A DNA stretch of 64,000 nucleotides. Source: Phycisphaerae bacterium. Lineage in GTDB: Bacteria > Planctomycetota > Phycisphaerae > SM23-33. Below, piece after piece: positions 8,559-33,537 of this stretch; position 1 is the first letter of the stretch, and each line of letters begins with the position of its first letter. Under the pieces are notes generated by a model. The model was not told where the DNA came from. It saw only the letters and a program-made list of their open reading frames with translations, and searched no databases. Made by a program: the position numbers and the translations under genes. The stretch spans positions 47,662-111,661 of the forward strand of contig JBHGBE010000003.1 in the NCBI GenBank assembly GCA_041946855.1, in the 5' to 3' direction.

Positions 8559-8677
8559 TATGGAGTGCGGCGGCACAGTCCCGGAGGGACTCGACGCCGC
8601 TTTCGTATTCTCCGTCGTTCAGGAGGCGAGTCATAGCGGCGTCGCGTCGCTTCGCGTCTTTGCCGCCGCACTCCATA
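8559..8677. repeat. GC-rich palindromic element, copy 1 (intergenic)
   Basis: The terminal inverted repeats are ATGGAGTGCGGCGGCACAGTC ... TTTGCCGCCGCACTCCATAG, with an internal imperfect palindrome CGACGCCGCTTTCG/CGAAGCGACGCGACGCCGC. The copy lies in the divergent promoter region between the membrane/radical SAM operon and rpoN. Confidence 0.8.
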
Positions 8678-8766
8678 GGAATGCCCCTTGTGATCTTCGT
8701 GCCCTTTGTGGTGAAGCATCCCCGGCCGTTGTCCGATTCTGATTCAAGGCGTAGAATGGAATCGTC

Positions 8767-10260
8767 ATGAGGCTCGATACGTCGCAACAACTTCGCCTTG
8801 AGCAGTCGATGAGGCTCTCGCCGCGGATCATCCAGGCGATGGAGATACTCCAGCTTCCGACGATGGCTCTGCTGGAGCGGATCGAGGCGGAGATGCAGGC
8901 CAACCCCGTCTTGGAGCTTCGCGAGGGCGGCGACGAGGAGCCTTCCACCACGCCGGCCGAGACGGGCGGTGCGGCGGAGCAGGACGCCACCGACGGCGAG
9001 CGGCCGCTGGTGGTCAAGGAGGGCGACGGCCACACGGAGGACTTCCAGCGCCTGGCCGACTACGAGGAGGAGTTCGACCCGTGGGCCGGTCCCGGCGGCG
9101 GTCAGCCACGCGCGTCCGCGGCTCCCGGCGAGCGCGACAGGAAGATGGACGCGATGGCCAACACGCCCGCGCCAGAGCAGCCGCTCGACGAGTACTTGAT
9201 GGGCCAGTGGGCGTTCGTCGAGGTCCCGCCGGCCGTAAAGGAGGCGGGCAGGCTCATCATCAACCGCATCGAGGATGATGGTTACCTCAAGACGCCGCTG
9301 GAAGACATCGCCAAGGAGACCACCCCGCCGACGGACCTTGCGGTGCTCGGCGAGGCCCTGCGGCTGATTCAGACGCTGGACCCTATCGGCGTGGGCGCTC
9401 GCGATCTGAAGGAGTGCCTCCTTATCCAGCTTGCGGCCGAGGAGACGGCCGGGCGCAACGTGGAGCTTGAGCGGCTGATCGTGGAGCGGTACCTCCGCGA
9501 CATCGAGATGAACCGCCTGCCTGCCATCGCCGCGCGGACGGGCAAGACCATCGAGCAGGTCAAGGCGGCGCTGGAGACGATCTCGCACCTGAACCCGCGG
9601 CCGGGCACGCTGGTCGGCCAGCGGGCGGCGCCGGTGATCGCCCCGGACATCACAGTGCGGCTGGGCGACGACGGCGAGCCGGTCATCACGATGGACGACG
9701 GCGCCGCGCCTGCCATGCACATCTCGCGGATGTACCGCAAGCTGGCCAAGGACCGCCGCACCGCCCGCGAGGCCCGCGCGTTCCTCCAGCGCAACATCCG
9801 CTCGGCCCAGTGGCTCATCTCGGCCATCCAGCTCCGGCGGCAGACCGTCCGCCGCGTGGCCGAGGAGGTGTTCAAGGCCCAGCGCGACTTCCTGGCCGAA
9901 GGCCCGCAGGCCCTGCGGCCGCTGCCGATGATGGATGTGGCCAACAAGGTAGGCGTACACATCGCGACCGTCTCGCGCGCGGTGGCGGGCAAGTACGTCC
10001 AGACTCCCTGGGGCATCTTCCCGCTGCGGATGTTCTTCGCCGGCGGCACTACCACCGCGGGCGGCGAGGACATCGCCTACGAGGCCGTCCGCGTCCGGCT
10101 CAAGGAGCTGGTCGACGCCGAGGACAAGTCCGCGCCGCTTGATGATGACAAGCTCGCCAAGGAGCTCGAGAAGCACGGCATCAAGATCGCCCGGAGGACG
10201 GTGGCGAAGTATCGCGACCTGATGGATATCCCGCCGGCGAGGAAGCGAAGGCAGTTCTGA
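8767..10260 (+). CDS. rpoN: RNA polymerase sigma-54 factor
   Basis: The N-terminal Gln/Leu-rich activator-interacting region, a core binding domain, the HTH and the RpoN box ARRTVAKYR are present. Confidence 0.95.
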   Translation: MRLDTSQQLRLEQSMRLSPRIIQAMEILQLPTMALLERIEAEMQANPVLELREGGDEEPSTTPAETGGAAEQDATDGERPLVVKEGDGHTEDFQRLADYEEEFDPWAGPGGGQPRASAAPGERDRKMDAMANTPAPEQPLDEYLMGQWAFVEVPPAVKEAGRLIINRIEDDGYLKTPLEDIAKETTPPTDLAVLGEALRLIQTLDPIGVGARDLKECLLIQLAAEETAGRNVELERLIVERYLRDIEMNRLPAIAARTGKTIEQVKAALETISHLNPRPGTLVGQRAAPVIAPDITVRLGDDGEPVITMDDGAAPAMHISRMYRKLAKDRRTAREARAFLQRNIRSAQWLISAIQLRRQTVRRVAEEVFKAQRDFLAEGPQALRPLPMMDVANKVGVHIATVSRAVAGKYVQTPWGIFPLRMFFAGGTTTAGGEDIAYEAVRVRLKELVDAEDKSAPLDDDKLAKELEKHGIKIARRTVAKYRDLMDIPPARKRRQF

Positions 10261-10331
10261 AGTCCGTGATGTGATTTCCAGCCAGAGCCGGTACAATCAT
10301 TTCCCTTGCGGATTACCTTCAAGGAGGTCCC

Positions 10332-12653
10332 GTGTTTGGGTTATGCCATGAGCTCGGACGGATTGCTTCCAAGGCAGCAATCCTCGGCATAGCGGGCCTG
10401 CCGGCGCTGCCGGCCATTGCCGCGCTGTCGCTTGCCATTCACGTCGCACTCGCGCAGGACGCCGCCGCACCCGATGCTCCTGCCGCTCCGGCCGCCGCGC
10501 CGGCACCCGCCATGGGCCGGCCGGCGACAGCGCCTGAGGGCGGAGCGAAGGCAAAGGGGGGCAACGGCGATGCGCTGCTCGGCTCCGCGGACTTCCAGCC
10601 GTCGCCCGAGCATCCATTTGGTTGGCGCGGGGACGGAAACGGCCGGTTTCCGGCCGCCAAGCCGCCACTGACCTGGGGCCGCGAATCCGCAGTCGTGAAA
10701 GGCCTATCCGCGCAGGCGAAAAAGCCCAAGCCGTCGGACAAGGGCCAGCCGGTTCAGGAGGGGGTGATCCGGGGGTGGCTGACGCTCGGCCCTGTTCCCA
10801 TCCCTGCCGGAAAGACGGCAAAGGACGATTTCGAGACGGGGGAAGACAAGTGGGAGCCGGATGAAGGCACGGAGGCCGGCGACCTGAAATGGAGCCCCGT
10901 CGCCCCGGACGGAAGCTGGCTCCACTTCTGGCCCATGTACAACAAGGCCGCTCCGGACGCCAAGGGCGTCGTCGCTTACGCTCACGCCTGGATCCATTCC
11001 GCCCAGGCCAAGCCGGTCTTCATCGATGTCATGGCCTCCGACACGACGCGCATCTGGCTCAACGGCAAGCCAGCCGGCAGCATCAACTCAAACGGACTGG
11101 ACGCGGCCGGCCACTTCAAACTGGACCTCCCCCAGGGATGGAACCGGCTGTTGCTGCGCGTCGCGCCTCATCTGGACACGGGGTGGGCCAAGGGCGTGAT
11201 CCAGTGGCATTTCACCGCCGCGCTCTACGGAGCCGATCCGAACGAATACGAGAGCAAGAACATCCTCTGGTCACTTCGGATGCCGGACAACGGCCCGGGC
11301 GTCGGTTCGCCGGTCCTGGCCGGGGATAAGCTTTTCCTCGAGGCGGATGCCGGCGTCTTGTTGTGCGTCAGCGCCAGCGACGGCAAGCCCCTCTGGGCGC
11401 GATCCAGCACCTATGCCGACGCCGCCAGCGCCCAGGAGCGAAAGCAGAATGCGGCGGTCTTCACCCAGATTGAGCCAATGGCGGCCAAGATCAAGGCCGC
11501 CTTGGACGCCTACTGCGCCGATCCGGGGAAGTACCCGGACGACGTCAAGGCGAAAAACGAGCGAGTCCAACTGGAGAAGAAGATCAATGCTTTCATGAGG
11601 ACGATGGACAGCGAGAAGTATTGCGGCCAGAGCGACAGCGAGGCGGGTGAGTCGGCGCCGACGCCGGTGACCGATGGCCAGAACGTCTATGCCGTGTTCG
11701 GGTCGGGCGTGGTCGCCTGTTTCGACCTGAACGGCAACCGGAAATGGACCACGGCGCTGGACCTGAAATACAAAGAGCACGGGTATTGTGCCTCCCCCTG
11801 CCTGATCGACGGATATCTCGTCCTGGTCGCGAAGAAATATGCTGGCGCCGTCGCGCTGGATGCCAGGACGGGCGAAGTCGCAACGCCGATAGCGTTGTGG
11901 AAGAGCACGCCAAAGGATGAAGCAGATCCTTACAGACACGCTATGTATGGTACCGCGTTGGCGGTGACGGTCGGCGGGCAGAAACTAGTGGCTTTCGCCG
12001 GGAGTGTCATGGCGAGACCCAGCGACGGAAAGGTCGTCACGAAAGGTTTCAAGATCCCCGACTACCAGAGCTTTCTCTCCGCGACGGTGGAGGGAAGGGC
12101 GTTATGCAGCAGCGGTGGAGCCCCCTCCGAAGGCGCCATGGACTTCGTGTTTCACACGCTGCCCGAGGCCTTCACTGAGCCCCTGAATATGCAGGAGGCG
12201 AAACAGGCCCAGTACAACGTCAAGGCGTTTCCCACCTGGTTCGCCTACAACCATTGCGCTTCGCCGCTTCTCTACCAGGGGCTGGCGTATGTCGTCAGCG
12301 TCGATGGCGTCCTGACCGTCATCGATGCCGCGAAGGGAGAGGTCGTGTACCAGAAGCTCCTGGACCTGTCGCCGTTCATGAACCACAGCGGAGTGAAACG
12401 GTGCGGGTGCAGTTCCAGCCCGGCCCTCGGCGGCAAGCATATCTACATCTGGGGCGATCAGGGCGCCGCGGTGGTGATCGAACCTGGGCGCGCGTTCAGA
12501 CAGATCGCGAAGAACAGGATTGAGCAGGGCGTCCACTCCGGGGGGGCGTCGGCCCGCAACGAGTGCTCGATCAGTTGCCCCGTTTTCAGCGGAAGCAGGA
12601 TCTATTACCGGGGCGAACTCAACCTGTATTGCATCGGTGAGAAGCCACGATAG
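10332..12653 (+). CDS. Secreted PQQ-like/BamB-like beta-propeller repeat protein
   Basis: A signal peptide is followed by repeated beta-propeller blades (DGKPLWARS, VACFDLNGNRKW, VIDAAKGEVVYQ). The protein is 773 aa. Confidence 0.55.
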   Translation: MFGLCHELGRIASKAAILGIAGLPALPAIAALSLAIHVALAQDAAAPDAPAAPAAAPAPAMGRPATAPEGGAKAKGGNGDALLGSADFQPSPEHPFGWRGDGNGRFPAAKPPLTWGRESAVVKGLSAQAKKPKPSDKGQPVQEGVIRGWLTLGPVPIPAGKTAKDDFETGEDKWEPDEGTEAGDLKWSPVAPDGSWLHFWPMYNKAAPDAKGVVAYAHAWIHSAQAKPVFIDVMASDTTRIWLNGKPAGSINSNGLDAAGHFKLDLPQGWNRLLLRVAPHLDTGWAKGVIQWHFTAALYGADPNEYESKNILWSLRMPDNGPGVGSPVLAGDKLFLEADAGVLLCVSASDGKPLWARSSTYADAASAQERKQNAAVFTQIEPMAAKIKAALDAYCADPGKYPDDVKAKNERVQLEKKINAFMRTMDSEKYCGQSDSEAGESAPTPVTDGQNVYAVFGSGVVACFDLNGNRKWTTALDLKYKEHGYCASPCLIDGYLVLVAKKYAGAVALDARTGEVATPIALWKSTPKDEADPYRHAMYGTALAVTVGGQKLVAFAGSVMARPSDGKVVTKGFKIPDYQSFLSATVEGRALCSSGGAPSEGAMDFVFHTLPEAFTEPLNMQEAKQAQYNVKAFPTWFAYNHCASPLLYQGLAYVVSVDGVLTVIDAAKGEVVYQKLLDLSPFMNHSGVKRCGCSSSPALGGKHIYIWGDQGAAVVIEPGRAFRQIAKNRIEQGVHSGGASARNECSISCPVFSGSRIYYRGELNLYCIGEKPR

Positions 12654-12691
12654 CAGGCCTTGCGAAAGATGATCTCCATTAAGGAGCATGC

Positions 12692-13603
12692 ATGTTCGAG
12701 CCCAGACGCGAACTTGGCAAGACAGGTTTCAAGGCAACGGTCCTCGGCATCGGCGATGTGGCCGACAGGTCGGTGCCCATAGAGCAGTGCGTCGCGACGG
12801 TGCGGCGGGCTATGGACGCCGGGCTGAACCTCATCGACACCGCGCCGGGCTACGAAGATGGGTACAGCGAAGAGATCGTCGGCCGGGCCTTGCGCGAGTC
12901 CGGCCGGCGGGACAGCATGTTCGTCATCGACAAGATCGACCACCTCGACCGCCCGGTCGCCGATCAGGTGGATGGGAGCCTGGCGCGCCTGGGCATCGAG
13001 GCGGCCGATGCGTTCGTCTTCCACGGCCCATCGACGAGCAAGGCCTGGCGGATGATCGAGGGCGGACTAATGGCCCAGCTCGACGCCTGCCGCAAGGCGG
13101 GCAAGTGCCGGTTCGTGGGCATATCCAGCCACCACCCGAAGGTGCTGGACGCCGCGATCAAGTCGGGCCTGTGCGATATAGTGCTCTTTCCCATCGGCCC
13201 CTGGTGCGACAAGCGGTACGCCAGGAAGATACTCCCGCTGGCCCGCTCGCGCGGCGTGGGGACGGTGTGCTTCAAGACATTCGGGGCGGGCAAGCTGCTG
13301 GGCGACACGACCGGCTACGGCCGGCCGCTGGAGGCCCGCCCGCGCGGCAAGTTCTCAAGCGGCGGGCACGAGCCGCCCGCGCCGACGCTGCCGCACCTGA
13401 CGGTCAGCGAGTGCGTCCGCTACACGCTGAGCGTCGATCCCGACGTGGCGCTGCTGGGCATGAGCTTTCCCAACGAGCAGGATGCGGCGTTCGCGGCGGC
13501 CGCCGACTTCAAGCCGCTTACCCCGGCCGAGATGGCCGAGATTGAAGCCCGCGCCGCCAGGGCCATCGAGGGCAAGGGCAACTGCTGGTGGAACCCGGAG
13601 TAG
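12692..13603 (+). CDS. Aldo/keto reductase family oxidoreductase
   Basis: The AKR motifs LIDTAPGYEDGYSEEIVGRAL and a TIM-barrel core are present. Confidence 0.85.
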   Translation: MFEPRRELGKTGFKATVLGIGDVADRSVPIEQCVATVRRAMDAGLNLIDTAPGYEDGYSEEIVGRALRESGRRDSMFVIDKIDHLDRPVADQVDGSLARLGIEAADAFVFHGPSTSKAWRMIEGGLMAQLDACRKAGKCRFVGISSHHPKVLDAAIKSGLCDIVLFPIGPWCDKRYARKILPLARSRGVGTVCFKTFGAGKLLGDTTGYGRPLEARPRGKFSSGGHEPPAPTLPHLTVSECVRYTLSVDPDVALLGMSFPNEQDAAFAAAADFKPLTPAEMAEIEARAARAIEGKGNCWWNPE

Positions 13604-13680
13604 CAGGAAGTGTTGATTTGTTGCCTTGTTACTTCGCAAAGCGCCACAGGCTGCCAGGGACCGTCCATCTCTCTTCGCGC

Positions 13681-13712
13681 CAATCCGAAATCCGATCTCC
13701 ATAATCCGAAAT
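13681..13712. repeat. 7-nt tandem array (aatccga units)
   Basis: Direct reading shows the array in the intergenic region. Confidence 0.7.
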
Positions 13713-13770
13713 GCCCTTCGCCTGCGCATAAGATTTGATGGATGGGAGAAGCGGAAAGAGGAGTGTAGTC

Positions 13771-14145
13771 ATGGACAAGAGCAGCACAGGCACGGCCGTG
13801 AGCGAGCTGGGCCGCAAGCAGTGCCAGCCGTGCGCCGCGGGGACGGCGGCCCTGTCGGGCGAGCGGCTGGATGAGATGCTGGCCCAGGTGCCGCAGTGGC
13901 AGTGCGTCGAGAACTCCACCAAGATCACCCGCACGTACAAGTTCGCCGACTGGGGCGGGGCGGCCGACTTCGCCTGCCGCGTCGCCGACCTGGCCGACCG
14001 CGAAGGCCACCACCCCGACATTCACCTGTCGTGGGGCAAGGTCACCATCGACCTGTCGACCCACAAGATCAAGGGACTCAGCGAGAACGACTTCATTCTG
14101 GCCGTCAAGATCGACCAGATGCTCGAGGGCTCCGACCTGGAGTGA
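13771..14145 (+). CDS. 4a-hydroxytetrahydrobiopterin dehydratase (pterin-4-alpha-carbinolamine dehydratase, PCD/DCoH)
   Basis: The signature EGHHPDIHLSWGKVTIDLSTHKIKGLSENDFILAVKID is present. A GGAG ribosome-binding site lies upstream of the ATG at 13771. Confidence 0.8.
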   Translation: MDKSSTGTAVSELGRKQCQPCAAGTAALSGERLDEMLAQVPQWQCVENSTKITRTYKFADWGGAADFACRVADLADREGHHPDIHLSWGKVTIDLSTHKIKGLSENDFILAVKIDQMLEGSDLE

Positions 14146-14400
14146 AGTGCATCAACGCAGGGGCCGGGATGGACGCAGAGACATCGCTGGCGGACCAGCA
14201 AAGCTCGAAAATTCCTTTGCGCCCTCTGCGATCTCTGCGTTGAGAGCGGCCTCAATAATCGAAAAATCTTGCCATGATCGGGCGTCATGCAGCTCGAGGA
14301 AAGGGCGGCGCTTGACGCCATCGCAGGCGCGCGACACCATTATGCATGTGGCGAGCGCCTGCTTTTTTGCGCATTGGCGGAGATGACGAATGGCTGGACG

Positions 14401-14512
14401 CAGAATGCCCAATGTCTAATGCCAAATGTCTAAGGAAGGCCAAAGGGCAAGCGTCTCAATGCTCGCCATCGGTGATTGGTTAGACATTAGGCATTTGGCA
14501 TTAGACATTGAG
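14401..14512. repeat. Inverted pair of 7-nt arrays (AATGNCN units: cccaatgtctaatgccaaatgtctaa ... ttagacattaggcatttggcattagacattg)
   Basis: Direct reading shows a perfect inverted arrangement flanking a 45 bp spacer. Confidence 0.85.
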
Positions 14513-14564
14513 CAAGGCGCCTGGAATGGGTAGACGGAAGAAATCCGGTTGAAGGGAGATCGAA

Positions 14565-15386
14565 GTGAGCAAACTGACCATCGGCGTGCTGGTGGGCGTG
14601 TCGAAGACTCCCGCGAAGGAACTTGCCAAGGTCACGGGCCTGGGCCTGCATAGCTGCCAGGTCTCGTCGTGGGACCCGGCCGTGTGGACGGATGAAGTCG
14701 GCAAGGCCCTCATCACGGCCGCGCGCGAGATGGGCGTGACCATCACCACGTTCTGGGCGGGCTACACCGGGCCGCGGGTGTGGAACTTCACCGAAGGCCC
14801 GAAGACCATCGGCCTGGTGCCGCCGCAGTTCCGCGCGCAGCGCCTGGCGGAACTGAAGCAGGCGGCGCGCTTCGCGGCCGCGCTGAAGCTGCCTTCGATC
14901 ACCACGCACGTCGGCTTCCTGCCGGAGGATCCCAACGACGCCCAGTACATCGGCACCGTTGATGCCCTGCGCGAATTGGCGACGCTGTGCCGCGAGCTCG
15001 GCATCGAGTTCTGGTTCGAGACCGGCCAGGAGACGCCCGTGAACCTGCTGAGGACCATCGAGCTGATCGGCACTGGCAACGTCGGCATCAACCTCGACCC
15101 GGCCAACCTCATCCTCTACGGCAAGGCCAACCCGATCGATGCGCTGGACGTCTTCGGCCGGTACGTCCGCGGCGTCCACGCCAAGGACGGCCTGTATCCC
15201 ACCGACGGCCGGCACCTGGGCAAGGAAACGCCGCTGGGCCAGGGCAAGGTCAACTTCCCCGCGCTCGTGCCCAAGCTCAAGTCGCTGGGCTTTTCCGGGG
15301 CGCTGACTATCGAGCGCGAGATCGGAGGAGAGCAGCAGATCAGAGACATCAAATCGGCGATAGAGCTTCTTCGACCGCTGTGCTGA
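14565..15386 (+). CDS. Sugar phosphate isomerase/epimerase (xylose isomerase-like TIM barrel)
   Basis: The Xyl-isomerase-like TIM-barrel sequence is present. A GTG start is preceded by GAAGGGAG. Confidence 0.75.
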   Translation: MSKLTIGVLVGVSKTPAKELAKVTGLGLHSCQVSSWDPAVWTDEVGKALITAAREMGVTITTFWAGYTGPRVWNFTEGPKTIGLVPPQFRAQRLAELKQAARFAAALKLPSITTHVGFLPEDPNDAQYIGTVDALRELATLCRELGIEFWFETGQETPVNLLRTIELIGTGNVGINLDPANLILYGKANPIDALDVFGRYVRGVHAKDGLYPTDGRHLGKETPLGQGKVNFPALVPKLKSLGFSGALTIEREIGGEQQIRDIKSAIELLRPLC

Positions 15387-15420
15387 GGGGCTCGGGCGGG
15401 AACCCGCGGATGACCAGAAA

Positions 15421-15549
15421 GAAAATGGCAGAATGCAAAATGCACAATGAATAAGGCGGAAGTCAGATGATCACTGCACGGCGAGTTCCTGCCTTGACCC
15501 TATGATTCCGCCTCTTGCCTTCTGCACTATGCCTCTTGCCTTCATTTCT
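15421..15549. repeat. Degenerate inverted 7-nt arrays (aatgcaa/ttgcctt units)
   Basis: Direct reading shows them between the convergent isomerase and rsgA genes. The right arm is imperfect. Confidence 0.45.
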
Positions 15550-16696
15550 TCCCTTCCAGTGTCTGGGCCATCCGCAGATAGCTTTCGTATCTTGAGGGCT
15601 GGATCTGGCCCGCCTCGACAGCCGCGATTACGGCGCAGTCCGGCTCGTGCGTGTGGGTGCAGTCGTTGAAGCGGCAGGCGGGGGCGAAACGCTCGAACTC
15701 GGAGAAGTACCACGGCAGCTCGGCGATGTCCATCTCGACGGCCAGCTCGCGGACGCCGGGCGTGTCGACCAGGATTCCGCCCGCGCCGCCGGGCTTGCCC
15801 TCTGTTGTGGGCAGGTCATATACGGCCGCAGCGGCCGTGGTGTGCCGGCCGCGCTGGTCCTTCATGCGTATCTCGCGGACGGCCGCTGACGCGCCGGGCA
15901 CCAGCGCGTTGACCAGCGAGCTCTTGCCCGCGCCGGACGGTCCGGCGAGCACGGTCTTCCTGCCAACAAGGTGCGGCAGGAGCACGTCCAGCCCTTCGGG
16001 CGTGACCACCGATGTGAGGATGGGCTTGAGGCCAAGCTCAGCTATCCGCTCAACCTTCTCGGTATCGGGCGGGCCGAGGTCGGTCTTGTTGATAACCAGG
16101 ATCGGCCGCAGGTCGCCGCGCTCGGCCACGATCATGAACCGCTCGACGAGCGCGGGCCTCAGCTCCGGCTGGCGCGTCGAGGCGACAATGAGTAGCTGAT
16201 CCATGTTGGCGGCGATGACCTTGAGGAAGCCCTCGTCGTCGTACCGGCCGTGATGCTTGCCGGAGCGGGGCTGGGGGCGGGCAAGGAGCGTTTTGCGCTT
16301 TGCGCGAGAGACGATCATGCCATCCGCGCGGAGCTTGTCGCCGTCGTGCGGGCCGGCCAGGGCCCCAGTGACGGCCACCGTCACCGTGTCGCCGACCGCA
16401 AGCGCGCTGGAGCCTTCGGGCGGGCGGAAGGTGCCCGAGATGCCGCAGATGAGCTGCCCCGCACGATCCGGCGACCGGACTATCGCTCCGCCGGGGAAAA
16501 GTCCCACGACCATTCCATCCAGACGCGGCAGGCCCTCGACGTTGTCGGGAACCCCCTCCGGCCGCCAGGCGGGGAGCTTGGTGGCCTTGGCGGTGACGCG
16601 CTGGCGGCGCGGGGCGGCCTCGCCCATCTCCTCGCCTTCGCGGTACACCCGCTGCCAGCCGTGCCGCTTAGCCGACTTGCCCTTCCGTTTGAACAT
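15542..16696 (-). CDS. rsgA: Ribosome small-subunit-dependent GTPase A
   Basis: The circularly permuted GTPase motifs (NKTDL, GPSGAGKSSL, DTPG) and the C-terminal zinc-finger cysteines CxxxxCxHxxxxxC are present. Confidence 0.85.
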   Translation of the reverse strand: MFKRKGKSAKRHGWQRVYREGEEMGEAAPRRQRVTAKATKLPAWRPEGVPDNVEGLPRLDGMVVGLFPGGAIVRSPDRAGQLICGISGTFRPPEGSSALAVGDTVTVAVTGALAGPHDGDKLRADGMIVSRAKRKTLLARPQPRSGKHHGRYDDEGFLKVIAANMDQLLIVASTRQPELRPALVERFMIVAERGDLRPILVINKTDLGPPDTEKVERIAELGLKPILTSVVTPEGLDVLLPHLVGRKTVLAGPSGAGKSSLVNALVPGASAAVREIRMKDQRGRHTTAAAAVYDLPTTEGKPGGAGGILVDTPGVRELAVEMDIAELPWYFSEFERFAPACRFNDCTHTHEPDCAVIAAVEAGQIQPSRYESYLRMAQTLEGKK

Positions 16697-16750
16697 CGAG
16701 CGGGATTATAGCCCCGAAGTGGCGCGGGGGGCAGGGAGGACCGGCGCAAT

Positions 16751-16854
16751 GGAAGACTGGAGGACGGGAGGAAGGGAGGACTAAAGGAAGGGCATCGGTC
16801 TCCAGTAGATTCCTCCTCCCCTCTTCCCTTCCTCCCGTCTTCCCCTCCCTCTCT
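16751..16854. repeat. Inverted purine-rich / pyrimidine-rich low-complexity arms (gggaggaagggagga ... tcctcccctcttcccttcctccc)
   Basis: Direct reading shows them in the intergenic region between rsgA and nfo. Confidence 0.7.
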
Positions 16855-16870: not shown

Positions 16871-17830
16871 TCAAAGCTGTCGCCGCACAAGCGACCTGAT
16901 CGCCCTTCCGTTGACAGCGTCCCAGTCCCGGCCGTCGGACTTGCGGATGCCCTTGGGTGTCTCCAGGATCATGGGCACTTGCGCCAGGCGCGGGTCGTTG
17001 ACGAAGTTGCGGAAGCCCTCGCGGCCGATGAGGCCCTTGCCGATGTGGGCGTGGCGGTCCACGTGCGAACCCAACTCGCGGACCGAGTCGTTCAGGTGGA
17101 TCGCCATGAGATTCGCCAGGCCGATGATGCGGTCGAACTCGCACATCGTCCGCGCGTAAGCATCCGGCGTGCGGATGTCGTAGCCGGCCGCGAATATGTG
17201 GCAGGTGTCCAGGCAGACGCCGACGCGGGATTTGTCGCTCAACTGCGCGAGGATTTCCGCGATCTGGTCGAACGTGCCGGCGAGGATGCTTCCCGCCCCG
17301 GCCGTCGTCTCGACGAGAATCTTCGGGAAGCCGACCGCGAAACTGGCACGGGCATCCTGCCCGTGAGTAGCAGGGGCATCTTGCCCCTGCACTTCCACGG
17401 GCGGGACGCCCGTGGTACTCATAAGCGAGACGCCCATGCCACGGTTGGACAGAACCTGGTTCAGGGCGTCGGCGATGAGCCGCAGGCCCACGCGGACATC
17501 GCGATTGCCGCCGGGATGTATCACGAGGTATTCGATGCCGAACGCGCGGCATCGCTCCAGGTCGGCCGCGACGGCCGCGATGGACTTGGAGCGCACCGGC
17601 TCCGTCCCGGCCAGGTTCACCAGGTACGAGCCGTGCGCCACCACGGGCGAGATGCCGAGCCGCCGGCGGGTCGCCTTGAACATCTCCACGGCCGTCTCAG
17701 CGAGCGGCGGCACGTGCCACTGCCTCTGGTTGCGGACGAAGACGGCGACCGTGTCGAAGCGGAACCGGCGGGCCTTCTCCAGCGCCGTGTGCATCCCGCC
17801 GGCGATGCTCAGGTGCGAACCGAGAAGCAT
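16871..17830 (-). CDS. nfo: Deoxyribonuclease IV (endonuclease IV)
   Basis: The protein is a TIM-barrel AP endonuclease with the motifs HGSYLVNL, HPGG and CLDTCHIFAAGYD. The 17932 start in the ORF track reads through the 7-mer repeat; the ATG is at 17830. Confidence 0.85.
   Translation of the reverse strand: MLLGSHLSIAGGMHTALEKARRFRFDTVAVFVRNQRQWHVPPLAETAVEMFKATRRRLGISPVVAHGSYLVNLAGTEPVRSKSIAAVAADLERCRAFGIEYLVIHPGGNRDVRVGLRLIADALNQVLSNRGMGVSLMSTTGVPPVEVQGQDAPATHGQDARASFAVGFPKILVETTAGAGSILAGTFDQIAEILAQLSDKSRVGVCLDTCHIFAAGYDIRTPDAYARTMCEFDRIIGLANLMAIHLNDSVRELGSHVDRHAHIGKGLIGREGFRNFVNDPRLAQVPMILETPKGIRKSDGRDWDAVNGRAIRSLVRRQL
17347..17414. repeat. Three tandem GC-rich mini-hairpins inserted in frame in nfo (CACGGGCAtccTGCCCGTG, CAGGGGCAtctTGCCCCTG, CACGGGCGggaCGCCCGTG)
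   Basis: Direct reading shows the hairpins. The encoded segment GMGVSLMSTTGVPPVEVQGQDAPATHGQDARA is absent from E. coli Nfo at this position. Confidence 0.75.
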
Positions 17831-17837
17831 GAAGACA

Positions 17838-17868
17838 TTGTGGATTGCGAATTGCGAATTGTGAATTG
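17838..17868. repeat. 7-nt tandem array (gattgcg aattgcg aattgtg aattg)
   Basis: Direct reading shows the array in the divergent nfo/archease promoter region. Confidence 0.8.
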
Positions 17869-17924
17869 AAAAGGCGATGAGAGAAGAGGGAAGAGCGAAG
17901 AGAGGGTAGAATCGCCGGGCAATC

Positions 17925-18476
17925 ATGGCCAAGTCTTGCGAGACATTCGATCACACGGCCGATGTTGGCCTGGCGGCGCGGGCGGACACGCCGGGGGAGC
18001 TGTTCGAGGCGCTGGGCGAAGGATTGGCCGATTACATCTGCCCGCGCACGACCGTCCGGCCGCGCGAGAAGCGGACACTGACGGTCGAGGCCGAGGACGT
18101 CGAGGCGTTGGCGGTCGATTTCCTGGCGGCACTGCTCAACGTGATTCAGGCGGACAGGTTCATGGTGACGGCCGTGAGCGTCATGGAGTGCGGCGGCACA
18201 GTCGCGCAGCGACACGGCGCCGCTCTGGCTGGCGCCGATGAAGGTGATTCTCCACGCAAGAGAGACTCGGCCGGTGCAGCCAAAGCGGTGTCGCGTCCCT
18301 TCGGGACTTTGCCACCGCACTCCAAAGTCAAAGTGACGGCCGAGTTGACGGGTGAGCCGTTCGATGCGTCCCGCCACGAGATTCACACGGAGGTCAAGGC
18401 CATCACCTACCATTTGCTGAAGGTTTCGCAGGAGCAAGACGGCACTTGGATAGGCCGGGTGATACTGGATCTGTGA
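17925..18476 (+). CDS. Archease (RtcB activator) carrying an in-frame palindromic-element insertion
   Basis: The N-terminal FDHTADVGL, EAEDVEALAVDFLAALL and the C-terminal EVKAITYH are archease hallmarks. The segment MECGGTVAQRHG...PPHSKV is encoded by palindromic element copy 2. Confidence 0.8.
   Translation: MAKSCETFDHTADVGLAARADTPGELFEALGEGLADYICPRTTVRPREKRTLTVEAEDVEALAVDFLAALLNVIQADRFMVTAVSVMECGGTVAQRHGAALAGADEGDSPRKRDSAGAAKAVSRPFGTLPPHSKVKVTAELTGEPFDASRHEIHTEVKAITYHLLKVSQEQDGTWIGRVILDL
18183..18326. repeat. GC-rich palindromic element, copy 2 (inside archease, in frame)
   Basis: The termini ATGGAGTGCGGCGGCACAGTCGCG ... TTTGCCACCGCACTCCAAAG match copies 1 and 3. Confidence 0.8.
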
Positions 18477-18525: not shown

Positions 18526-19985
<1,460 letters not shown>

Positions 19986-19989
<4 letters not shown>

Positions 19990-20167
19990 TTGACGATTTA
20001 CGATTGCCGATTCAGAGCCGCAACTCCCCTTCGCCTCGCCCGGCGCAATCATGTTCAATGCCCTTGCAAAAACCGGCCCAGCGGATAATACTGGTTCGAT
20101 TGTGCCTGCGGCGACGGCGCCGGTGGGCCGTGTGAATCGTCAATCGACAATCGTCAATCTGCAATAG
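19986..20167. repeat. Inverted pair of 7-nt arrays (gattgacgatttacgattgccgattc ... gaatcgtcaatcgacaatcgtcaatc) flanking a roughly 115 bp spacer
   Basis: Direct reading shows the pair. Confidence 0.85.
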
Positions 20168-20181
20168 CCTTAGGAGCTTTC

Positions 20182-22740: not shown

Positions 22741-22813
22741 GGGTAGGTAGCTCAGCTGGTAGAGCGCGGCACTGAAAATGCCGAGGTCGCCGGTTCAATC
22801 CCGGCCCTACCCA
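22741..22813 (+). tRNA. tRNA-Phe (anticodon GAA)
   Basis: The cloverleaf runs from the acceptor stem GGGTAGG, through the D-arm TAGCTCAGCTGGTAGAGC, the anticodon loop CTGAAAA and the T-arm GGTTCAATCC, to ...CCCTACCCA. Confidence 0.9.
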
Positions 22814-25377: not shown

Positions 25378-25518
25378 CAGAAGGCAAAAGGGGCGAGGGA
25401 CTAGCGACCAGGTGTCGCGGAGAGCGCTCACGTCTCGCATTCCAGCCGAACATCGATACCCCAAGTCGCTAATCGCTAATCCCTAGTCCCTTGCCCTCCA
25501 TGGCCATATAATTCCGGC

Positions 25519-26331: not shown

Positions 26332-26390
26332 AGACGAAAGATTCTCTTGCTTGTCGCTACGGCTTGACGCCCTTATAATTGAGTGTTGAT

Positions 26391-26582
26391 ATGGGAAACG
26401 CAATCGTAATCAAGGTTCCGAGCCGCAGAAGCCGCATCCTTGCCATGCGCTCGCCGATGGATACGGAGGTCGTCGCCCACGGAAATGATCTGGATAAGGT
26501 TCTTGAGAAAGCCGCGAAGGCCGGGGTAAAGGACCCGATCATCATGTTCGTACCCAGGCCTGGCAGACGGCACACCTACTGA
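26391..26582 (+). CDS. Small DUF5678-like protein
   Basis: The protein is 63 aa with EVVAHGNDLDKVLEKAAKAGVKDPIIMFVP. The likely promoter is TTGTCG-17-TATAAT, 11 nt before the ATG, so the transcript is nearly leaderless. The gene lies in the low-GC islet. Confidence 0.35.
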   Translation: MGNAIVIKVPSRRSRILAMRSPMDTEVVAHGNDLDKVLEKAAKAGVKDPIIMFVPRPGRRHTY

Positions 26583-26587
26583 CAAAC

Positions 26588-27049
26588 ATGCCTAGTTACA
26601 AGTACTCCTTCGTCAAGTGTCGTTACGCCAATGGCATAGTTGACGAGAGAGGCCAGACGTTTGTCCCCGTTCGCATCACGAATCCGTCAACAGGCGTCTG
26701 GCGAATGGCATGGGGATTGATAGACACGGGCGCGGAGTCCTGTCTGTTTCCCGCCAATCTGGCCGCAAAGCTTGGACATGTCCTGAAGGCCAAGGGCGTC
26801 AAGGCAAGCGTAGCCAGCGGGATTGAGGAAAGGCCTGTCACCACGTAAAAGCATACCTTCCGGGTCGAGCTTATGTCGAAGGACCTGCAAAGGGTGGTCT
26901 GGCGGTCCGGCAAAATGGAAGTAGACTGCGCCGAATGCAACTCCCTAGTCATACTTGGCGTGGACAACCTGTTCGCATCGTTCAGGTTAACGATAGACTA
27001 CCCTAAGGAAGTCATGCGTTTCCAGTGGCAGCGGGCGATAGGGAAGTGA
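26588..27049 (+). pseudogene. Retropepsin-like (clan AA) aspartic protease interrupted by an in-frame TAA at 26846-26848
   Basis: The D-T-G active site LIDTGAESCLF is present. A C-terminal motif LVILGVDNLFASFRLTIDYPKEV continues in the same frame after the stop. The region has low GC. Confidence 0.55.
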
Positions 27050-27063
27050 GTCGAGTTCTTCCG

Positions 27064-28020
27064 ATGGGCGTCGAGAGAGTAACCTCTGTTCCCAGACTTC
27101 CAGCGCGTGCCGCCGACGCAAACAAGGGCAGTTTCGGGCGGGTGCTGATCGTCGGCGGGTGCAGGAAGATGTCCGGCGCGGTGGCGCTGGCGTCGAACGC
27201 GGCGCTGCGCGGCGGGGCGGGGCTGGTGGAGTTCGCGGCGCCGGCCGTCGCGCACCCGATCATCGCGGGCCTGTGCCCCTGCGCGGTGTCGCTGCCGCTG
27301 GAGTGCGACGAGCACGGCGAGATTTCTCCGGCCGCTCTGCCGCAGGTCCGCGAGCGTTTCGAGAAGGCCACGGTCCTGGCCGTCGGGCCGGGGTTCGGCG
27401 TGGGAGTTGTCCAGCGGAATATCGTGCAGGCGGCGCTGGAGCAGGAAAAGCCAGCCGTCATCGACGCCGACGGCCTCAATAACCTGGCGAAGATCGAGGA
27501 CTGGCCTTTGCTGCGCAATTGCCCGCTGATCCTGACGCCCCATCCGGGCGAGTTCTCGCGCCTGACGGGCAAGACGATCCGGGAAATCCAGGACGATCGG
27601 GAGAGAATCGCTGTAGAGACCGTCAGGAAATGGACTGCTCGTAGTGTGCCCGTAAGGGCATCCGCTCGCAGCGTGCCCGCAAAGACATCGAAGAACTCCT
27701 TACGGCGTCACTACGAACGCGGATGCGAAGTCGTGCTCGTCCTCAAGGGCGCTGGCACGGTCGTCACCGACGGCCGGCGCGTCTACATCAACAAGACCGG
27801 CAACCCCGGCATGGCCACCGGCGGCACCGGCGACGTGCTGACCGGCCTGACGGCCGCCCTTATCGCCCAGCACCTCGAACCGTTCGACGCCGCGTGCCTG
27901 GCCGTTCATCTCCACGGCCGTGCGGGCGACCTGGCGGCGGAACAGCTCGGCCAGACATCACTCATCGCCTCGGACCTGATAGACTTCCTGCCCGCCGCGA
28001 TCAAAGAAGTTCTGCTATAA
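27064..28020 (+). CDS. nnrD: ADP-dependent NAD(P)H-hydrate dehydratase (YjeF C-terminal family)
   Basis: GSFGRVLIVGG, LKGAGTVV and GMATGGTGDVLTG are present. Confidence 0.8.
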   Translation: MGVERVTSVPRLPARAADANKGSFGRVLIVGGCRKMSGAVALASNAALRGGAGLVEFAAPAVAHPIIAGLCPCAVSLPLECDEHGEISPAALPQVRERFEKATVLAVGPGFGVGVVQRNIVQAALEQEKPAVIDADGLNNLAKIEDWPLLRNCPLILTPHPGEFSRLTGKTIREIQDDRERIAVETVRKWTARSVPVRASARSVPAKTSKNSLRRHYERGCEVVLVLKGAGTVVTDGRRVYINKTGNPGMATGGTGDVLTGLTAALIAQHLEPFDAACLAVHLHGRAGDLAAEQLGQTSLIASDLIDFLPAAIKEVLL

Positions 28021-28042
28021 TCGGCCCAGGAGAAATTCCGTC

Positions 28043-29326
28043 ATGAGTTCCACGAGCGTTATCGGTACGGGCGGCCCGCAGGAGTCACTCTCACAGGCGA
28101 AGGTCCGCGAGATCATCGCCCAGGCCGTGGGCCGTCTTGCCCCGGATGGCAAGAGCATACTGGCGATTATCCCCGACCACACGCGGACCTGCCCCCTGCC
28201 GATGTTCCTCCGCGAGCTTCACTCGGCCGTCGGCAAGAGGGCCAAGCGGCTGGACTTTCTCGTGGCCCTTGGCACGCACCCGCCGATGAGCGACTCGCAA
28301 ATCGACCACCTGCTCGGCGTGCCCGATGGCAAGCGCGGCGAGGTATTCCCCGGCGTCAAGGTCTTCAATCACACGTGGAAGGACCCCAAGTCCCTGGCCC
28401 GCGTTGGCTCGCTCAGCGCCGACAGGATCAACGAGATTTCCGGCGGCCTGTTCTCGATGGATGTCGAGGTCACGGTCAACAAGCTGATCTTCGACTACGA
28501 CATAGTGCTGATCGTCGGGCCAGTCTTCCCGCACGAGGTGGTGGGGTTCTCCGGCGGGTGCAAGTATTTCTTCCCGGGCATTTCGGGGCCGGAGCTGCTG
28601 AACTTCTTCCACTGGCTGGGCGCGGTGATCACCAACCCGCGGATCATCGGCACAAAGCACACACCTGTGCGGGCCGTGGTCGATGCGGCCGGCGACATGC
28701 TCAAGGTCAACAAGTACGCATTCTGCATGGTCGTCCGCGGCGAGGAGCTTGCGGGCCTTTACTTCGACGAGCCAAAGGCGGCGTGGTCGGCCGCCGCGGA
28801 CCTGTCGGACAAGATTCACATCATCTACGTGGAAAAGCCCTTCTCGTCGGTGCTTTCCAAGGCGCCCAAGATGTACGACGACCTGTGGACCGGCGGCAAG
28901 TGCATGTACAAGATGGAGCCGGTCGTGGCCGATGGCGGCGAACTCATCATCTACGCCCCGCACATCACCGAGATTTCCGTCACGCACGGGGCGATCATCG
29001 AGGAGATCGGCTACCACGTCCGCGACTACTTCCGCACGCAGTGGGACAAGTTCAAGCACTACCCCTGGGGCGTGCTGGCGCACTCGACGCACGTCCGCGG
29101 CATCGGCACGATGACGGACGGCGTGGAAAAGCCTCGCATCCGCGTGACGCTGGCCACCGGCATCCCCGAAGCCCTCTGCCGCAAGATCAACCTGGGCTAC
29201 CGCGACGTGGCCTCCATCCGCGTCGAGGACTGGCAGGGCAAGGAATCGCAGGGCAGGCTCTACGTTCCCAAGGCTGGCGAGATGCTCTACAAGCTCCAGG
29301 ACCCGCCGGCGTGGCAGAAGTTCTAG
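28043..29326 (+). CDS. larA: Lactate racemase LarA-family protein (DUF2088)
   Basis: The IIPDHTRTCP motif, LarA-like N- and C-domains and a length of 427 aa support the call. Confidence 0.7.
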   Translation: MSSTSVIGTGGPQESLSQAKVREIIAQAVGRLAPDGKSILAIIPDHTRTCPLPMFLRELHSAVGKRAKRLDFLVALGTHPPMSDSQIDHLLGVPDGKRGEVFPGVKVFNHTWKDPKSLARVGSLSADRINEISGGLFSMDVEVTVNKLIFDYDIVLIVGPVFPHEVVGFSGGCKYFFPGISGPELLNFFHWLGAVITNPRIIGTKHTPVRAVVDAAGDMLKVNKYAFCMVVRGEELAGLYFDEPKAAWSAAADLSDKIHIIYVEKPFSSVLSKAPKMYDDLWTGGKCMYKMEPVVADGGELIIYAPHITEISVTHGAIIEEIGYHVRDYFRTQWDKFKHYPWGVLAHSTHVRGIGTMTDGVEKPRIRVTLATGIPEALCRKINLGYRDVASIRVEDWQGKESQGRLYVPKAGEMLYKLQDPPAWQKF

Positions 29327-29368
29327 ACGCGTATCGCGCCATTGCGCCACGACATCGGACCAGTTCGC

Positions 29369-30169
29369 ATGATCGTTGACCACGACGTCCACGTACACAC
29401 CGTTCTGTCGGCCTGCTGTTCGGATGAGAGGGCGACGCCGGCCAACATCATCGCCCGCGCGGCCGAGGTCGGGCTAAAGACCATCGGCTTCGCCGATCAT
29501 CTGTGGGATTCGGCCGTGCCTGGCGGCAGCAACTGGTACCGGCCCCAGGATGTGGCCCACGTGCTGCGCACGCGGGATGCGCTGGCTAATGACGCGCGCA
29601 GTGTGCGAGTGCTCGTCGGCTGCGAGAGCGATTACTGCGGCGGCGGCAAGGTGGGCATCACGCCGGAATCGGCGCGGCAGTTCGACTTCGTCCTGCTCCC
29701 CATGTCGCACTTCCACATGAGGGGATTTGTCGTGCCGGAGGGGCTCGCCGACCCAGGCCAGATCGCGCACCTCCTCGTCCAGCGTTTCAACGAGGTCGTC
29801 GAGCTTGGCCTTGCCACCGGCATACCCCACCCGTTCCTGCCAGTAGGCGATGCGGAGCGCGTTGACGAGATAACGTCGCACCTGAGCGACGATGACCTGA
29901 AGGCCTGCTTCGGCCGCGCGGCCCAACGGCACGTCAGCGTCGAGGTCAGCACGGCCATGTTCCCATCCTGCGAGCAAGGCGAAGAGGATGGGTTCCACGA
30001 TGAGTCATTCCTCCGCATCCTGCGGATCGCCAAGCGCAGCGGGTGCCTGTTCCACTTCGCCAGCGACTCGCACAGCCTGGCCGGCATCGGCCGGGTGCTG
30101 AAGCTCGCGCCAATCGCGGATGACATCGGCATCACGCCTGATGACATCCACCCTCTCTTCCGAAGCTGA
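29369..30169 (+). CDS. PHP-domain (polymerase/histidinol phosphatase-like) metal-dependent phosphoesterase
   Basis: The His/Asp metal ligands DHDVHVHT...ADH...H are present. Confidence 0.6.
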   Translation: MIVDHDVHVHTVLSACCSDERATPANIIARAAEVGLKTIGFADHLWDSAVPGGSNWYRPQDVAHVLRTRDALANDARSVRVLVGCESDYCGGGKVGITPESARQFDFVLLPMSHFHMRGFVVPEGLADPGQIAHLLVQRFNEVVELGLATGIPHPFLPVGDAERVDEITSHLSDDDLKACFGRAAQRHVSVEVSTAMFPSCEQGEEDGFHDESFLRILRIAKRSGCLFHFASDSHSLAGIGRVLKLAPIADDIGITPDDIHPLFRS

Positions 30170-30217
30170 AGGGCCGTTTGCTGTTGTCCGCCTGAATCCC
30201 GGCTACTATGATTCGCT

Positions 30218-32078
<1,861 letters not shown>

Positions 32079-32080
<2 letters not shown>

Positions 32081-32200
32081 TTGTGGATTGTGAATTGTGG
32101 ATTGTGGATTGTGTATTTCCCCGTGCCAGCATTGACCCGCGGATAGCCGGCCGAGCCCGTCGATGGAAATCCACAATACGCAATTCACAATTCACAATAT
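32079..32200. repeat. Inverted pair of 7-nt arrays (gattgtggattgtgaattgtggattgtggattgtg ... cacaatacgcaattcacaattcacaat)
   Basis: Direct reading shows the pair between hscA and fdx. Confidence 0.85.
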
Positions 32201-32222
32201 CCCGCTGCTAGAATTCAGCGCA

Positions 32223-32573
32223 ATGACCCACAAGCTCACATTCCTCCCCGCCAACGTGACCGTTGAGGTCGATCCGGCCCACCTGCCGCCTAACCATTTC
32301 GGCAAGGAGGGCAGCATCCTCGACATCGCGCTGGCCAATGGCGTCCAACTGGAGCACGCCTGCGGCGGCGCGGGCGTGTGCGGCACGTGCCACGTGATCG
32401 TCAACGCCGGCATGGAGAACCTGTCCGCTCCGGAGGATGACGAGATGGACGTGGTCGACCAGGCCCCCAACGCCACGCTCACCAGCCGCCTGGCCTGCCA
32501 GGCGGTCGTCAAGGGCGACGTGACGGTCACGGTACCGGGCTGGAACCGGAACGCCGTGTCGGAGAAACATTAG
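32223..32573 (+). CDS. fdx: ISC-type [2Fe-2S] ferredoxin
   Basis: The Cys ligands CGGAGVCGTCHV...C are present, with an adrenodoxin-type fold. Confidence 0.8.
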   Translation: MTHKLTFLPANVTVEVDPAHLPPNHFGKEGSILDIALANGVQLEHACGGAGVCGTCHVIVNAGMENLSAPEDDEMDVVDQAPNATLTSRLACQAVVKGDVTVTVPGWNRNAVSEKH

Positions 32574-32578
32574 CAGGG

Positions 32579-32800
32579 ATGACAGGGATGCCGGATCTGA
32601 AGTGGTCAGACGCGGATGAAATTGGCTTCTTGTTGAGCCAGAAGTTCCCCGACACCGACCCCCTGTCAGTTCGATTCACGGACCTGCGCGATTGGGTGAC
32701 GCAGTTGGAGGGTTTCGCCGACAAGCCCGACGGCTCCAGCGAGCAGATTCTCGAGGCGATCCAGATGGCGTGGCTGGGCTACTACAAGGACACGCACTGA
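32579..32800 (+). CDS. iscX: Fe-S assembly protein IscX (YfhJ)
   Basis: The sequence LKWSDADEIGFLL...VRFTDLRDWV...EQILEAIQMAWL matches IscX closely. Confidence 0.8.
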   Translation: MTGMPDLKWSDADEIGFLLSQKFPDTDPLSVRFTDLRDWVTQLEGFADKPDGSSEQILEAIQMAWLGYYKDTH

Positions 32801-33537
32801 CGGTAACGTCCCGTTCTCCAGGCGAATCGGACAACCGAAGCAACGGCCGCGCCTACTGACATCGCCACAGCCGCGACGCCGGCGGCGCCGATCACCGCCC
32901 AGAACCACCAGCCCAGGCCGCCAAGGACGTCGAACGCGGCCGCGATCGCCGCCAACGCAACCGGCGCGGCGATGGCCCGAAGTGCGTTACCCAGTACGCG
33001 AGGAACCCATGTGGAGTGCGGCGGCCGTGACGCCGCTTTGGATGTTCGATGTGTCGCGGCAAGTGAAAGCGGCGTCGTGTCGCTTCGCGACTGTGCCGCC
33101 GCACTCCATAGGCACTCCCGCCACAGATACGCGCTCGCGCCGATAAGCCACAGCACGGCGACGTGGCCGGTCCACAAACCGCAGAGCATCCGCCAGCGCG
33201 GGCCGATGTCGATGATGTGCAGGCCGCCGAGCATCGCTGCCGCCAGGCAAAGGATGTTGACCGCCAGCACACTCGCGCTCAGCGGCCACCGCAGCTCCAG
33301 CCCACGCGGCTCCGCCCCGCTCCGCCGCAGGCCGCTTCGCCAACGGCCGCGCCGCGCCAGGCCCCCTTGCGCCAGGCCGCTCCGCCAGATCCAAGACGCG
33401 ATCAGCCACGCCATCGTCAGCGCCGCGCCGGCGTACAGGCCCAGACACCGCTGGCAGACCGGCAGCGCACGGCCGTCGACGACGAAGCACCGCCCCTGGC
33501 CGCACAGGTGGGAGAAGATGTCCGCAATCAGGTCCAC
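32782..33537 (-). CDS. DUF2085-family membrane protein carrying an in-frame palindromic-element insertion
   Basis: The N-terminal motif CGQGRCFVVDGRALPVCQRCLGLYAG is present. Palindromic element copy 3 lies inside the ORF and is translated as SAAAQSRSDTTPLS.... Confidence 0.5.
   Translation of the reverse strand: MDLIADIFSHLCGQGRCFVVDGRALPVCQRCLGLYAGAALTMAWLIASWIWRSGLAQGGLARRGRWRSGLRRSGAEPRGLELRWPLSASVLAVNILCLAAAMLGGLHIIDIGPRWRMLCGLWTGHVAVLWLIGASAYLWRECLWSAAAQSRSDTTPLSLAATHRTSKAASRPPHSTWVPRVLGNALRAIAAPVALAAIAAAFDVLGGLGWWFWAVIGAAGVAAVAMSVGAAVASVVRFAWRTGRYRQCVSL
33009..33110. repeat. GC-rich palindromic element, copy 3 (inside the DUF2085 gene, in frame)
   Basis: The termini TGGAGTGCGGCGGCCGTGACGCCGCTTT ... 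GCGACTGTGCCGCCGCACTCCATAG match the other copies. Confidence 0.8.

Follow-up and report, generated by a model that had tools for sequence, protein, structure and literature searches.

A 64-kb stretch of the genome of a Phycisphaerae bacterium (contig JBHGBE010000003.1; the whole stretch analysed, hereafter the window) contains three copies of a GC-rich palindromic element, one extragenic and two intragenic. They lie at 8559-8677 in an intergenic region, at 18182-18326 in the gene encoding archease and at 33010-33110 in a gene encoding a DUF2085 membrane protein; window searches thereby bore out the three palindromes described in an initial annotation of this DNA. The elements are most probably doublets of inverted repetitive extragenic palindromic (REP) units, scattered in trans by a REP-associated tyrosine transposase (RAYT), with the genic copies being survivors in tolerant loops. 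Their anatomy, the covariation of their hairpins, the membership of all six arms in one family and the association of that family with RAYT genes in four other loci are observed, as are the absence of target-site duplications, the absence of the inserts from most orthologues, their non-coding composition and the disordered structure modelled for them.

Copy 1 occupies the divergent intergenic region between a minus-strand membrane open reading frame (ORF) and rpoN, with a sigma-70-like match at 8729-8757 between the copy and rpoN, downstream of the element. Archease, the host of copy 2, is an activator of the RtcB RNA ligase. The ORFs carrying copies 2 and 3 continue through both elements without a stop. 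The genes concerned are as follows (GC3, GC content at third codon positions).

8015-8497, minus strand: membrane ORF, GC3 0.78
8767-10260, plus strand: rpoN, three sigma-54 domains
17925-18476, plus strand: archease gene (PF01951, 115 bits), 183 aa, host of copy 2
18526-19989, plus strand: rtcB, directly downstream of the archease gene
32782-33537, minus strand: DUF2085 membrane-protein gene (PF09858, 26.1 bits against a cut-off of 25), host of copy 3

Anatomy of the palindromic elements

The 13-mer GGAGTGCGGCGGC occurs in the window five times exactly and once with a single mismatch, invariably in inverted pairs spaced 100-145 nt apart. No fourth copy was found in the 64 kb by searches with the 13-mer, by broader tag searches or by a covariance-model scan with filters off. 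Folding energies of -87.3, -91.2 and -65.3 kcal/mol were calculated for copies 1, 2 and 3, far more stable than dinucleotide shuffles (z = -11.8, -7.9 and -6.4).

Alignment of the three copies on both strands showed that each element is composed of two inverted half-units around a variable spacer. A half-unit consists of the tag T-GGAGT, a hairpin GCGGYG...CRCCGC and the tail TTT, and the tags of a doublet face outward, an arrangement resembling a REPIN or a bacterial interspersed mosaic element (BIME). The core common to the termini is TGGAGTGCGG(C/T)GGC; the 21-nt termini that had been described as shared are exact at some ends, but the 3' arms of copies 1 and 2 and the 5' arm of copy 3 differ, and similarity of arms between copies is about 84-91%. 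The spacers of 25, 51 and 22 nt (copies 1, 2 and 3) are unrelated in sequence. Lengths had all been given as roughly multiples of three, which does not hold for the intergenic copy with its 119 nt.

A small inner hairpin of the form GTCSC-GNA-GSGAC, once with a mismatch, occupies the loop of five of the six arms; it appears as GTCCC-GGA-GGGAC, GTCGC-GCA-GCGAC, GTCCC-GAA-GGGAC and GTCGC-GAA-GCGAC, a compensatory swap from C:G to G:C preserving the stem. Only a plain short loop is present in the sixth arm (33010-33041). When the arms were read directly, no stop codon appeared in any frame of the REP consensus on either strand, so that the units can be read through in both orientations. The parts of the three elements are listed below, with spacers taken from the alignment and with scores from R1, a covariance model built from units of other genomes (see below).

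8559..8605, plus strand: left REP unit of copy 1; tag TATGGAGT, GCGGCG..(GTCCC-GGA-GGGAC)..CGCCGC, TTT; 39.6 bits, E 6.9e-07
8606..8630, no strand: spacer of copy 1, 25 nt, from the both-strand alignment
8631..8677, minus strand: right REP unit of copy 1, inverted; 34.5 bits, E 9.4e-06
18182..18228, plus strand: left REP unit of copy 2; inner GTCGC-GCA-GCGAC; archease peptide ..MECGGTVAQRHGAAL..; 28.1 bits, E 2.6e-04
18229..18279, no strand: spacer of copy 2, 51 nt; the palindrome continues into its outermost ~13 nt at either end
18280..18326, minus strand: right REP unit of copy 2; inner GTCCC-GAA-GGGAC; archease peptide ..AVSRPFGTLPPHSK..; 42.9 bits, E 1.2e-07
33010..33041, plus strand: short-loop REP unit of copy 3; GGAGT GCGGCG GCCGTGA CGCCGC TTT; 34.4 bits, E 9.8e-06
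33042..33063, no strand: spacer of copy 3, 22 nt
33064..33110, minus strand: long-loop REP unit of copy 3; inner GTCGC-GAA-GCGAC; 38.3 bits, E 1.4e-06

Related units and RAYT genes in other genomes

A scan of one genome per species with the 14-mer TGGAGTGCGGCGGC returned at least 120 loci, a sample and not a census because the 14-mer is unspecific and over half of the 120 loci were chance matches in GC-rich genomes. Among the matches listed, the tagged hairpin was present in about 40 of the 120 sampled loci. Thirteen full doublets had the form tGGAGT-GCGGnnnn-loop-nnnnCCGC-TTT ... AAA-GCGGnnnn-loop-nnnnCCGC-ACTCCa, and these further copies with the same termini agree with the dispersed palindromic family with defined ends that had been proposed. 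The main hosts were Acidobacteriota (Blastocatellia, Pyrinomonadaceae, Terriglobia, Thermoanaerobaculia), Verrucomicrobiota/Kiritimatiellia and Planctomycetota, including a metagenome-assembled genome (MAG) of the Phycisphaerales, with single cases in Hydrogenedentota and in a Zoogloeaceae MAG. At most doublets of other genomes there was no spanning coding frame, and their spacers ranged from about 2 nt to more than 100 nt.

Outside the window, 83 distinct units were collected, carrying the tag T-GGAGT (70) or GGACT (13) and in 72 of 83 cases the tail TTT; in all of these, as in the six window arms, the tag is followed by a hairpin of 18-34 nt. The stems vary yet stay complementary (GCGGCGGC/GCCGCCGC, GCGGGAGC/GCTCCCGC, GCGGTGCC/GGCACCGC, GCGCCGGC/…GGCGC). 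In a set of 28 units picked by the spacing of tag and tail alone, 87.9% of cells were paired, changes on both sides were seen in five of eight pairs and the observed covariation score was reached by none of 500 shuffles. The flanks were compared in 29 doublets, using the two bases outside the conserved T...A. At 44 of 58 positions they were complementary, which makes them a continuation of the palindrome (typically TTTGGAGT...ACTCCAAA) and not a target-site duplication; a 2-nt direct repeat was present in four of the 29.

Searches of PLSDB plasmids with the consensus doublet gave chance-level partial matches only. Complete doublets of the GGAGT family were seen on the IMG/VR viral-classified contigs L133, L135, L137, L141 and L143, and no RAYT relatives were found among the IMG/VR viral contigs.

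A phmmer search with E. coli RayT against all ORFs in the fetched loci gave one match (E 3.7e-07), in a Limisphaerales MAG (locus L101). This ORF of 189 aa contains the motifs NHYH and YTHQNPVKHG and is flanked by two and a half doublets on one side and two doublets on the other. It matched the full NCBIfam model NF047646 'REP-associated tyrosine transposase' (77.9 bits, E 6.7e-22), and its HUH and Tyr motifs line up with those of its only PDB match, 4ER8 (E. coli TnpArep). The doublets of L101 are tandem and near-identical, repeating every ~157 nt to either side of the gene (3087-3445 and 4127-4400); conserved spacers were found in these arrays only, unlike in the dispersed copies. The RAYT family comprised 6,124 matches, the best 120 of which (proteins P0237-P0356) were 70-79% identical and came from MAGs labelled Verrucomicrobiota and Acidobacteriota, including 'Ca. 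Acidoferrum' entries, indicating unusually strong conservation or horizontal spread.

Further RAYT loci were fetched by exact protein from an Acidobacteriota MAG ('Ca. Acidoferrum'; L125), from ENA metagenomes (L126-129) and from a 675-kb JGI contig (L130). All carry tagged REPs of the GGAGT family immediately next to the RAYT gene at either end, as single REPs in inverted orientation in L130 and as complete doublets abutting the start and stop of the gene in L126. Flanking of a RAYT gene by these REPs was thus seen in four independent loci (L101, L125, L126-129, L130), all in other genomes.

The covariance model R1 was built from 14 RAYT-flanking units only (L101, L125, L126, L130) and contained no window sequence. 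In an unfiltered scan of the entire window it recovered exactly the six arms, at 42.9, 39.6, 38.3, 34.5, 34.4 and 28.1 bits (E 1e-07 to 3e-04), and the next-best match reached 13.8 bits (E 0.43). The loop core GCGAAGCG is common to the window arms and to units of L125 and L130.

In-frame copies in archease and the DUF2085 protein

With copy 2, archease of the window has 183 aa, and most of its 120 best homologues have 138-139 aa. The net gain is 44 aa (183 vs 139), somewhat less than the initial estimate of about 48. The inserts are absent from about 100 archease and DUF2085 homologues, and since nearly all archease orthologues are without the segment it is not an ancestral feature of the domain. 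In an AlphaFold2 model the core of archease had a predicted local distance difference test (pLDDT) score above 90, and residues ~92-134 had a pLDDT of about 50 and no secondary structure; the insert is placed between the beta strands 79-91 and 135-145, at the tip of a beta-hairpin. Among the 120 best homologues only one other protein, P0002 (66% identical; 949-bp contig L122), also has 183 aa, with an insert in the same loop and the termini GTGGAGTGCGGCGG ... GCGCACTCCAAAG kept, and P0073 has a 27-aa insert in that loop. The doublet of P0002 (L122 354-503) retains the outer tags and has a different palindromic repeat as its interior (CCCTCTCCCTCGAAGGGAGAGGG ... ), suggesting that one repeat was inserted into another or that the interior was replaced.

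Copy 3 lies in a linker of the DUF2085 protein (..LWSAAAQSRSDTTPLSLAATHRTSKAASRPPHSTW..) that is variable among homologues, which mostly have 187-210 aa and lack the insert; several others carry unrelated repeats in that linker. One relative, P0122 (58% identical; L123), has a doublet of the same family in the same linker, apparently in opposite orientation. In the P0122 doublet (L123 1533-1650) the short-loop unit lies towards the 5' end of the gene and in the window copy (33010-33110) towards the 3' end, pointing to inversion of the palindrome or to independent insertion. A further GC-rich segment of 30 aa (AQGGLARRGRWRSGLRRSGAEPRGLELRWPL) is encoded at 33279-33372 on the minus strand and was found only in the window protein among 17 aligned DUF2085 homologues.

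GC3 was 0.62 in the archease insert, compared with 0.86 and 0.76 in its flanks, and 0.56 in the DUF2085 insert, compared with 0.90 upstream, and values in adjoining coding DNA reach 0.91; with values below those of the flanking coding sequence, the inserts have therefore not acquired coding composition. Both intragenic insertions appear old, because the relatives that share them have no more than 58-66% protein identity. The unusual lengths of archease and of the DUF2085 protein are due to REP insertion and not to new domains, and the reading of two copies as translated in frame within otherwise normal genes, likened initially to Rickettsia palindromic elements (RPE), was upheld.

The window holds other repeats. 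REPs of a second, GTAG-type family are located at 17344-17443, 2264-2314, 52437-52533 and 62203-62271 (for example GTAGCAGGGGCATCTTGCCCCTGC, CCACGGGCGGGACGCCCGTGG). The cluster at 17344-17443 is in frame inside an AP-endonuclease/xylose-isomerase-like ORF (16871-17932, minus strand) and encodes ..VQGQDAPATHGQDARAS.. (..HGQDARA..), resembling the intragenic REP peptide HGRHARAT of Opitutus terrae. Arrays with a 7-nt period (GATTGNN / AATCGNN), many of them in inverted pairs forming hairpins, were also present; where the context was checked, they are located outside coding ORFs, such as beside the signal recognition particle (SRP) RNA and upstream of a ferredoxin gene. These arrays are at:

993-1132
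4012-4043
5250-5286
13682-13719
17837-17868
19982-20168
32066-32198
41252-41372
48257-48295
55762-55951
59722-59831

Matches at Rfam gathering score in the window were SRP RNA (704-984), a tRNA (22741-22813) and 6S RNA (53355-53507).

Proposed origin and comparison with known systems

In the mechanism that we propose, a RAYT would recognise the tag and hairpin on single-stranded DNA and would cut and rejoin it there, dispersing REP units or doublets in trans without target-site duplication. Insertions into genes would mostly be lost; the survivors, which would then be inherited, would be those in frame, free of stops and placed in loops that tolerate them structurally. The copies in archease (beta-hairpin tip) and the DUF2085 protein (variable linker) are probably such survivors, and the copy upstream of rpoN an ordinary extragenic one. 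The genome would then have, or have had, a RAYT that moved the window copies, and the translated inserts are probably neutral.

Several observations weigh against this origin. No RAYT gene lies in the 64-kb window, so that in this organism the association with RAYT is one of REP homology only. The RAYT ORF of the Limisphaerales MAG scored just under the curated cut-offs (NCBIfam 77.9 vs 80, Pfam Y1_Tnp 20.3 vs 23). The spacers of the window copies differ in length and sequence, unlike those of classical REPINs, and being unrelated they lend no support to the doublet as a single moving unit. The intragenic share of two in three is unusually high for 'extragenic' palindromes. The inner-hairpin subfamily was seen nowhere else, a metagenome-contig scan with a 20-mer giving one chance match in a coding region. 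Both genic copies appear old, and current mobility could at most be inferred.

Some of these points also speak for the elements being immobile fossils, that is, REP doublets inherited by descent in a lineage in which the RAYT was lost or is inactive, the copies merely persisting. Besides the missing RAYT gene and the restricted subfamily, this alternative would account for arms only ~84-91% alike, for unrelated spacers and for same-site counterparts with remodelled interiors in relatives at 66% and 58% protein identity. Against it, tags and hairpins are near-intact in all six arms, the inner hairpins have been kept by compensatory changes (GTCCC/GGGAC vs GTCGC/GCGAC) and a density of three copies per 64 kb, the portion of the genome seen, suggests a sizeable population. 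We consider fossils a possible explanation, to be held tentatively.

That the palindromes are kept by host selection, as a protein-binding site, a transcription terminator or attenuator, or a hairpin that stabilises mRNA or is cut by RNase III, appears improbable. Their hairpins are very stable on either strand and the tag is conserved across phyla, as a signal might be; REPs of E. coli affect mRNA stability and bind gyrase and IHF, which is compatible with mobilisation by RAYT. However, the spacers are unconstrained, two copies lie within ORFs at non-homologous positions, and the sole intergenic copy is between divergent genes and not at a 3' end. There is no terminator-like U-tract, and Rfam searches at gathering and permissive thresholds with a window copy and eight family loci yielded no family beyond a generic similarity to long hairpins (sub-threshold matches to miRNA precursors). 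Nothing observed calls for a role as an RNA or DNA signal in the host. An intrinsic terminator at copy 1 was rejected separately, there being no terminator-like site in 8300-8900, a tail of TTT only and divergent genes on either side.

A classical miniature inverted-repeat transposable element (MITE), a deletion derivative of an insertion sequence (IS) with a DDE transposase that moved via terminal inverted repeats and left a TA-like target-site duplication, had been suggested by the TA/AG-like junctions, and small, dispersed, non-coding elements with inverted termini would fit it, as would the TA that happens to lie on both sides of copy 1. It is very unlikely here, as the junctions do not form direct repeats, compensatory changes mark the termini as tagged hairpins (REP units), the sole gene found bracketed by such termini, in four loci, encodes a Y1 HUH RAYT, and no DDE transposase was seen beside the copies.

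If the elements are indeed RAYT-scattered REP doublets, they may be part of a wider pattern in which the GGAGT REP and the NHYH RAYT form one lineage that spread horizontally over Acidobacteriota, the Planctomycetes-Verrucomicrobia-Chlamydiae (PVC) phyla and others, its doublets being a recurrent source of new, long-kept disordered protein loops, here in archease and the DUF2085 protein, with an insert site shared with a diverged relative. This extension is speculative and rather doubtful; if true, it would contradict the prevailing picture of vertically inherited, lineage-specific pairs of REP and RAYT. More immediately, the elements account for recurrent 'MECGG...PPHSK'-type peptides and spurious small ORFs in assemblies of Planctomycetota, Verrucomicrobiota and Acidobacteriota. 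They add a REP family spanning several phyla, whose tag is not GTAG and whose RAYT partner is strongly conserved; no paper describing a GGAGT-tagged REP family as such was found in the literature. They also provide two clean cases of a REP doublet kept in frame through speciation, as material for studying selfish hairpins that turn into protein sequence, and leave the current understanding of REPs unchanged.

REP, BIME and REPIN sequences are reportedly mobilised by RAYT (TnpA_REP) (Nunvar 2010; Bertels & Rainey 2011; Ton-Hoang 2012; Di Nocera 2013, PMC3733652; Quentin 2018, PMC6006769). The window elements resemble REP/RAYT systems in having a short GC-rich hairpin preceded by an unpaired, conserved 5' tag and followed by a tail of 3 nt, in inverted pairing into one long hairpin, in the lack of target-site duplication and in the bracketing of a single HUH-Y1 RAYT gene by the units ('REPtron') in related genomes. 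The nearest tag on record is that of the Chloroflexus aurantiacus RAYT ABY36092.1, whose flanking REPs are listed as GGAGTGCGGCAGCCATGCTGCCG, that is, GGAGTG with the stem CGGCAGC (Quentin et al. 2018, PMC6006769, Table S1). RAYTs with an HYH motif (subclass 2.8) have REPs with a GTAGT foot and close relatives in other phyla (PMC6006769), and other RAYT subclasses have GTAGTGCGGGCA...-type REPs (PMC6006769, Table S1). A fit with class 3 HuH-Y1 proteins and their 'CnGA' foot (PMC6006769) was weighed because of their distribution in Planctomycetes and Acidobacteria and set aside, as tag and protein motifs do not match. Unlike these systems, the tag here is GGAGT/GGACT and not GTAG, the family, and with it a RAYT with 70-79% identity among the best 120 of 6,124 matches, is shared near-unchanged by several phyla, and the window subfamily has an extra inner hairpin in the loop and no RAYT within 64 kb. 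The REPIN of Bertels & Rainey agrees in having two inverted REPs in one long hairpin and differs in its conserved spacer, as do the REPINs of Pseudomonas.

Of the mobile elements, IS200/IS605 share HUH-Y1 chemistry on single-stranded hairpins and the absence of target-site duplication, whereas they carry a transposase and asymmetric ends, the window elements being non-coding symmetric doublets, and the protein associated with these in related genomes matches the RAYT model and PDB 4ER8, not IS200 TnpA. Rickettsia RPE (Ogata et al. 2000), for which no kinship in sequence is expected, are alike in behaviour only, as in-frame palindromes translated into extra segments at surface-exposed positions; here there is a GGAGT tag and a RAYT partner in related genomes. 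RPE-4 and RPE-6 have been classed as CGTC-tagged REPs with no dedicated transposase known (Di Nocera et al. 2013, PMC3733652). The same survey described REPs and RAYTs in the PVC phyla, with dimers that have variable spacers and 3-nt tails, and many REPs including dimers inside ORFs, above all in O. terrae (PMC3733652). The in-frame insertion reported here is thus a fresh example of a behaviour already known, intragenic REP dimers having been described previously. In that PVC bacterium singles or dimers lie wholly inside ORFs and contribute 7-30+ residues in frame (PMC3733652, Additional file 3); the window elements differ in belonging to the GGAGT family, in inserts of 34-48 aa, in their archease and DUF2085 hosts and in the same-site insert of a diverged relative.

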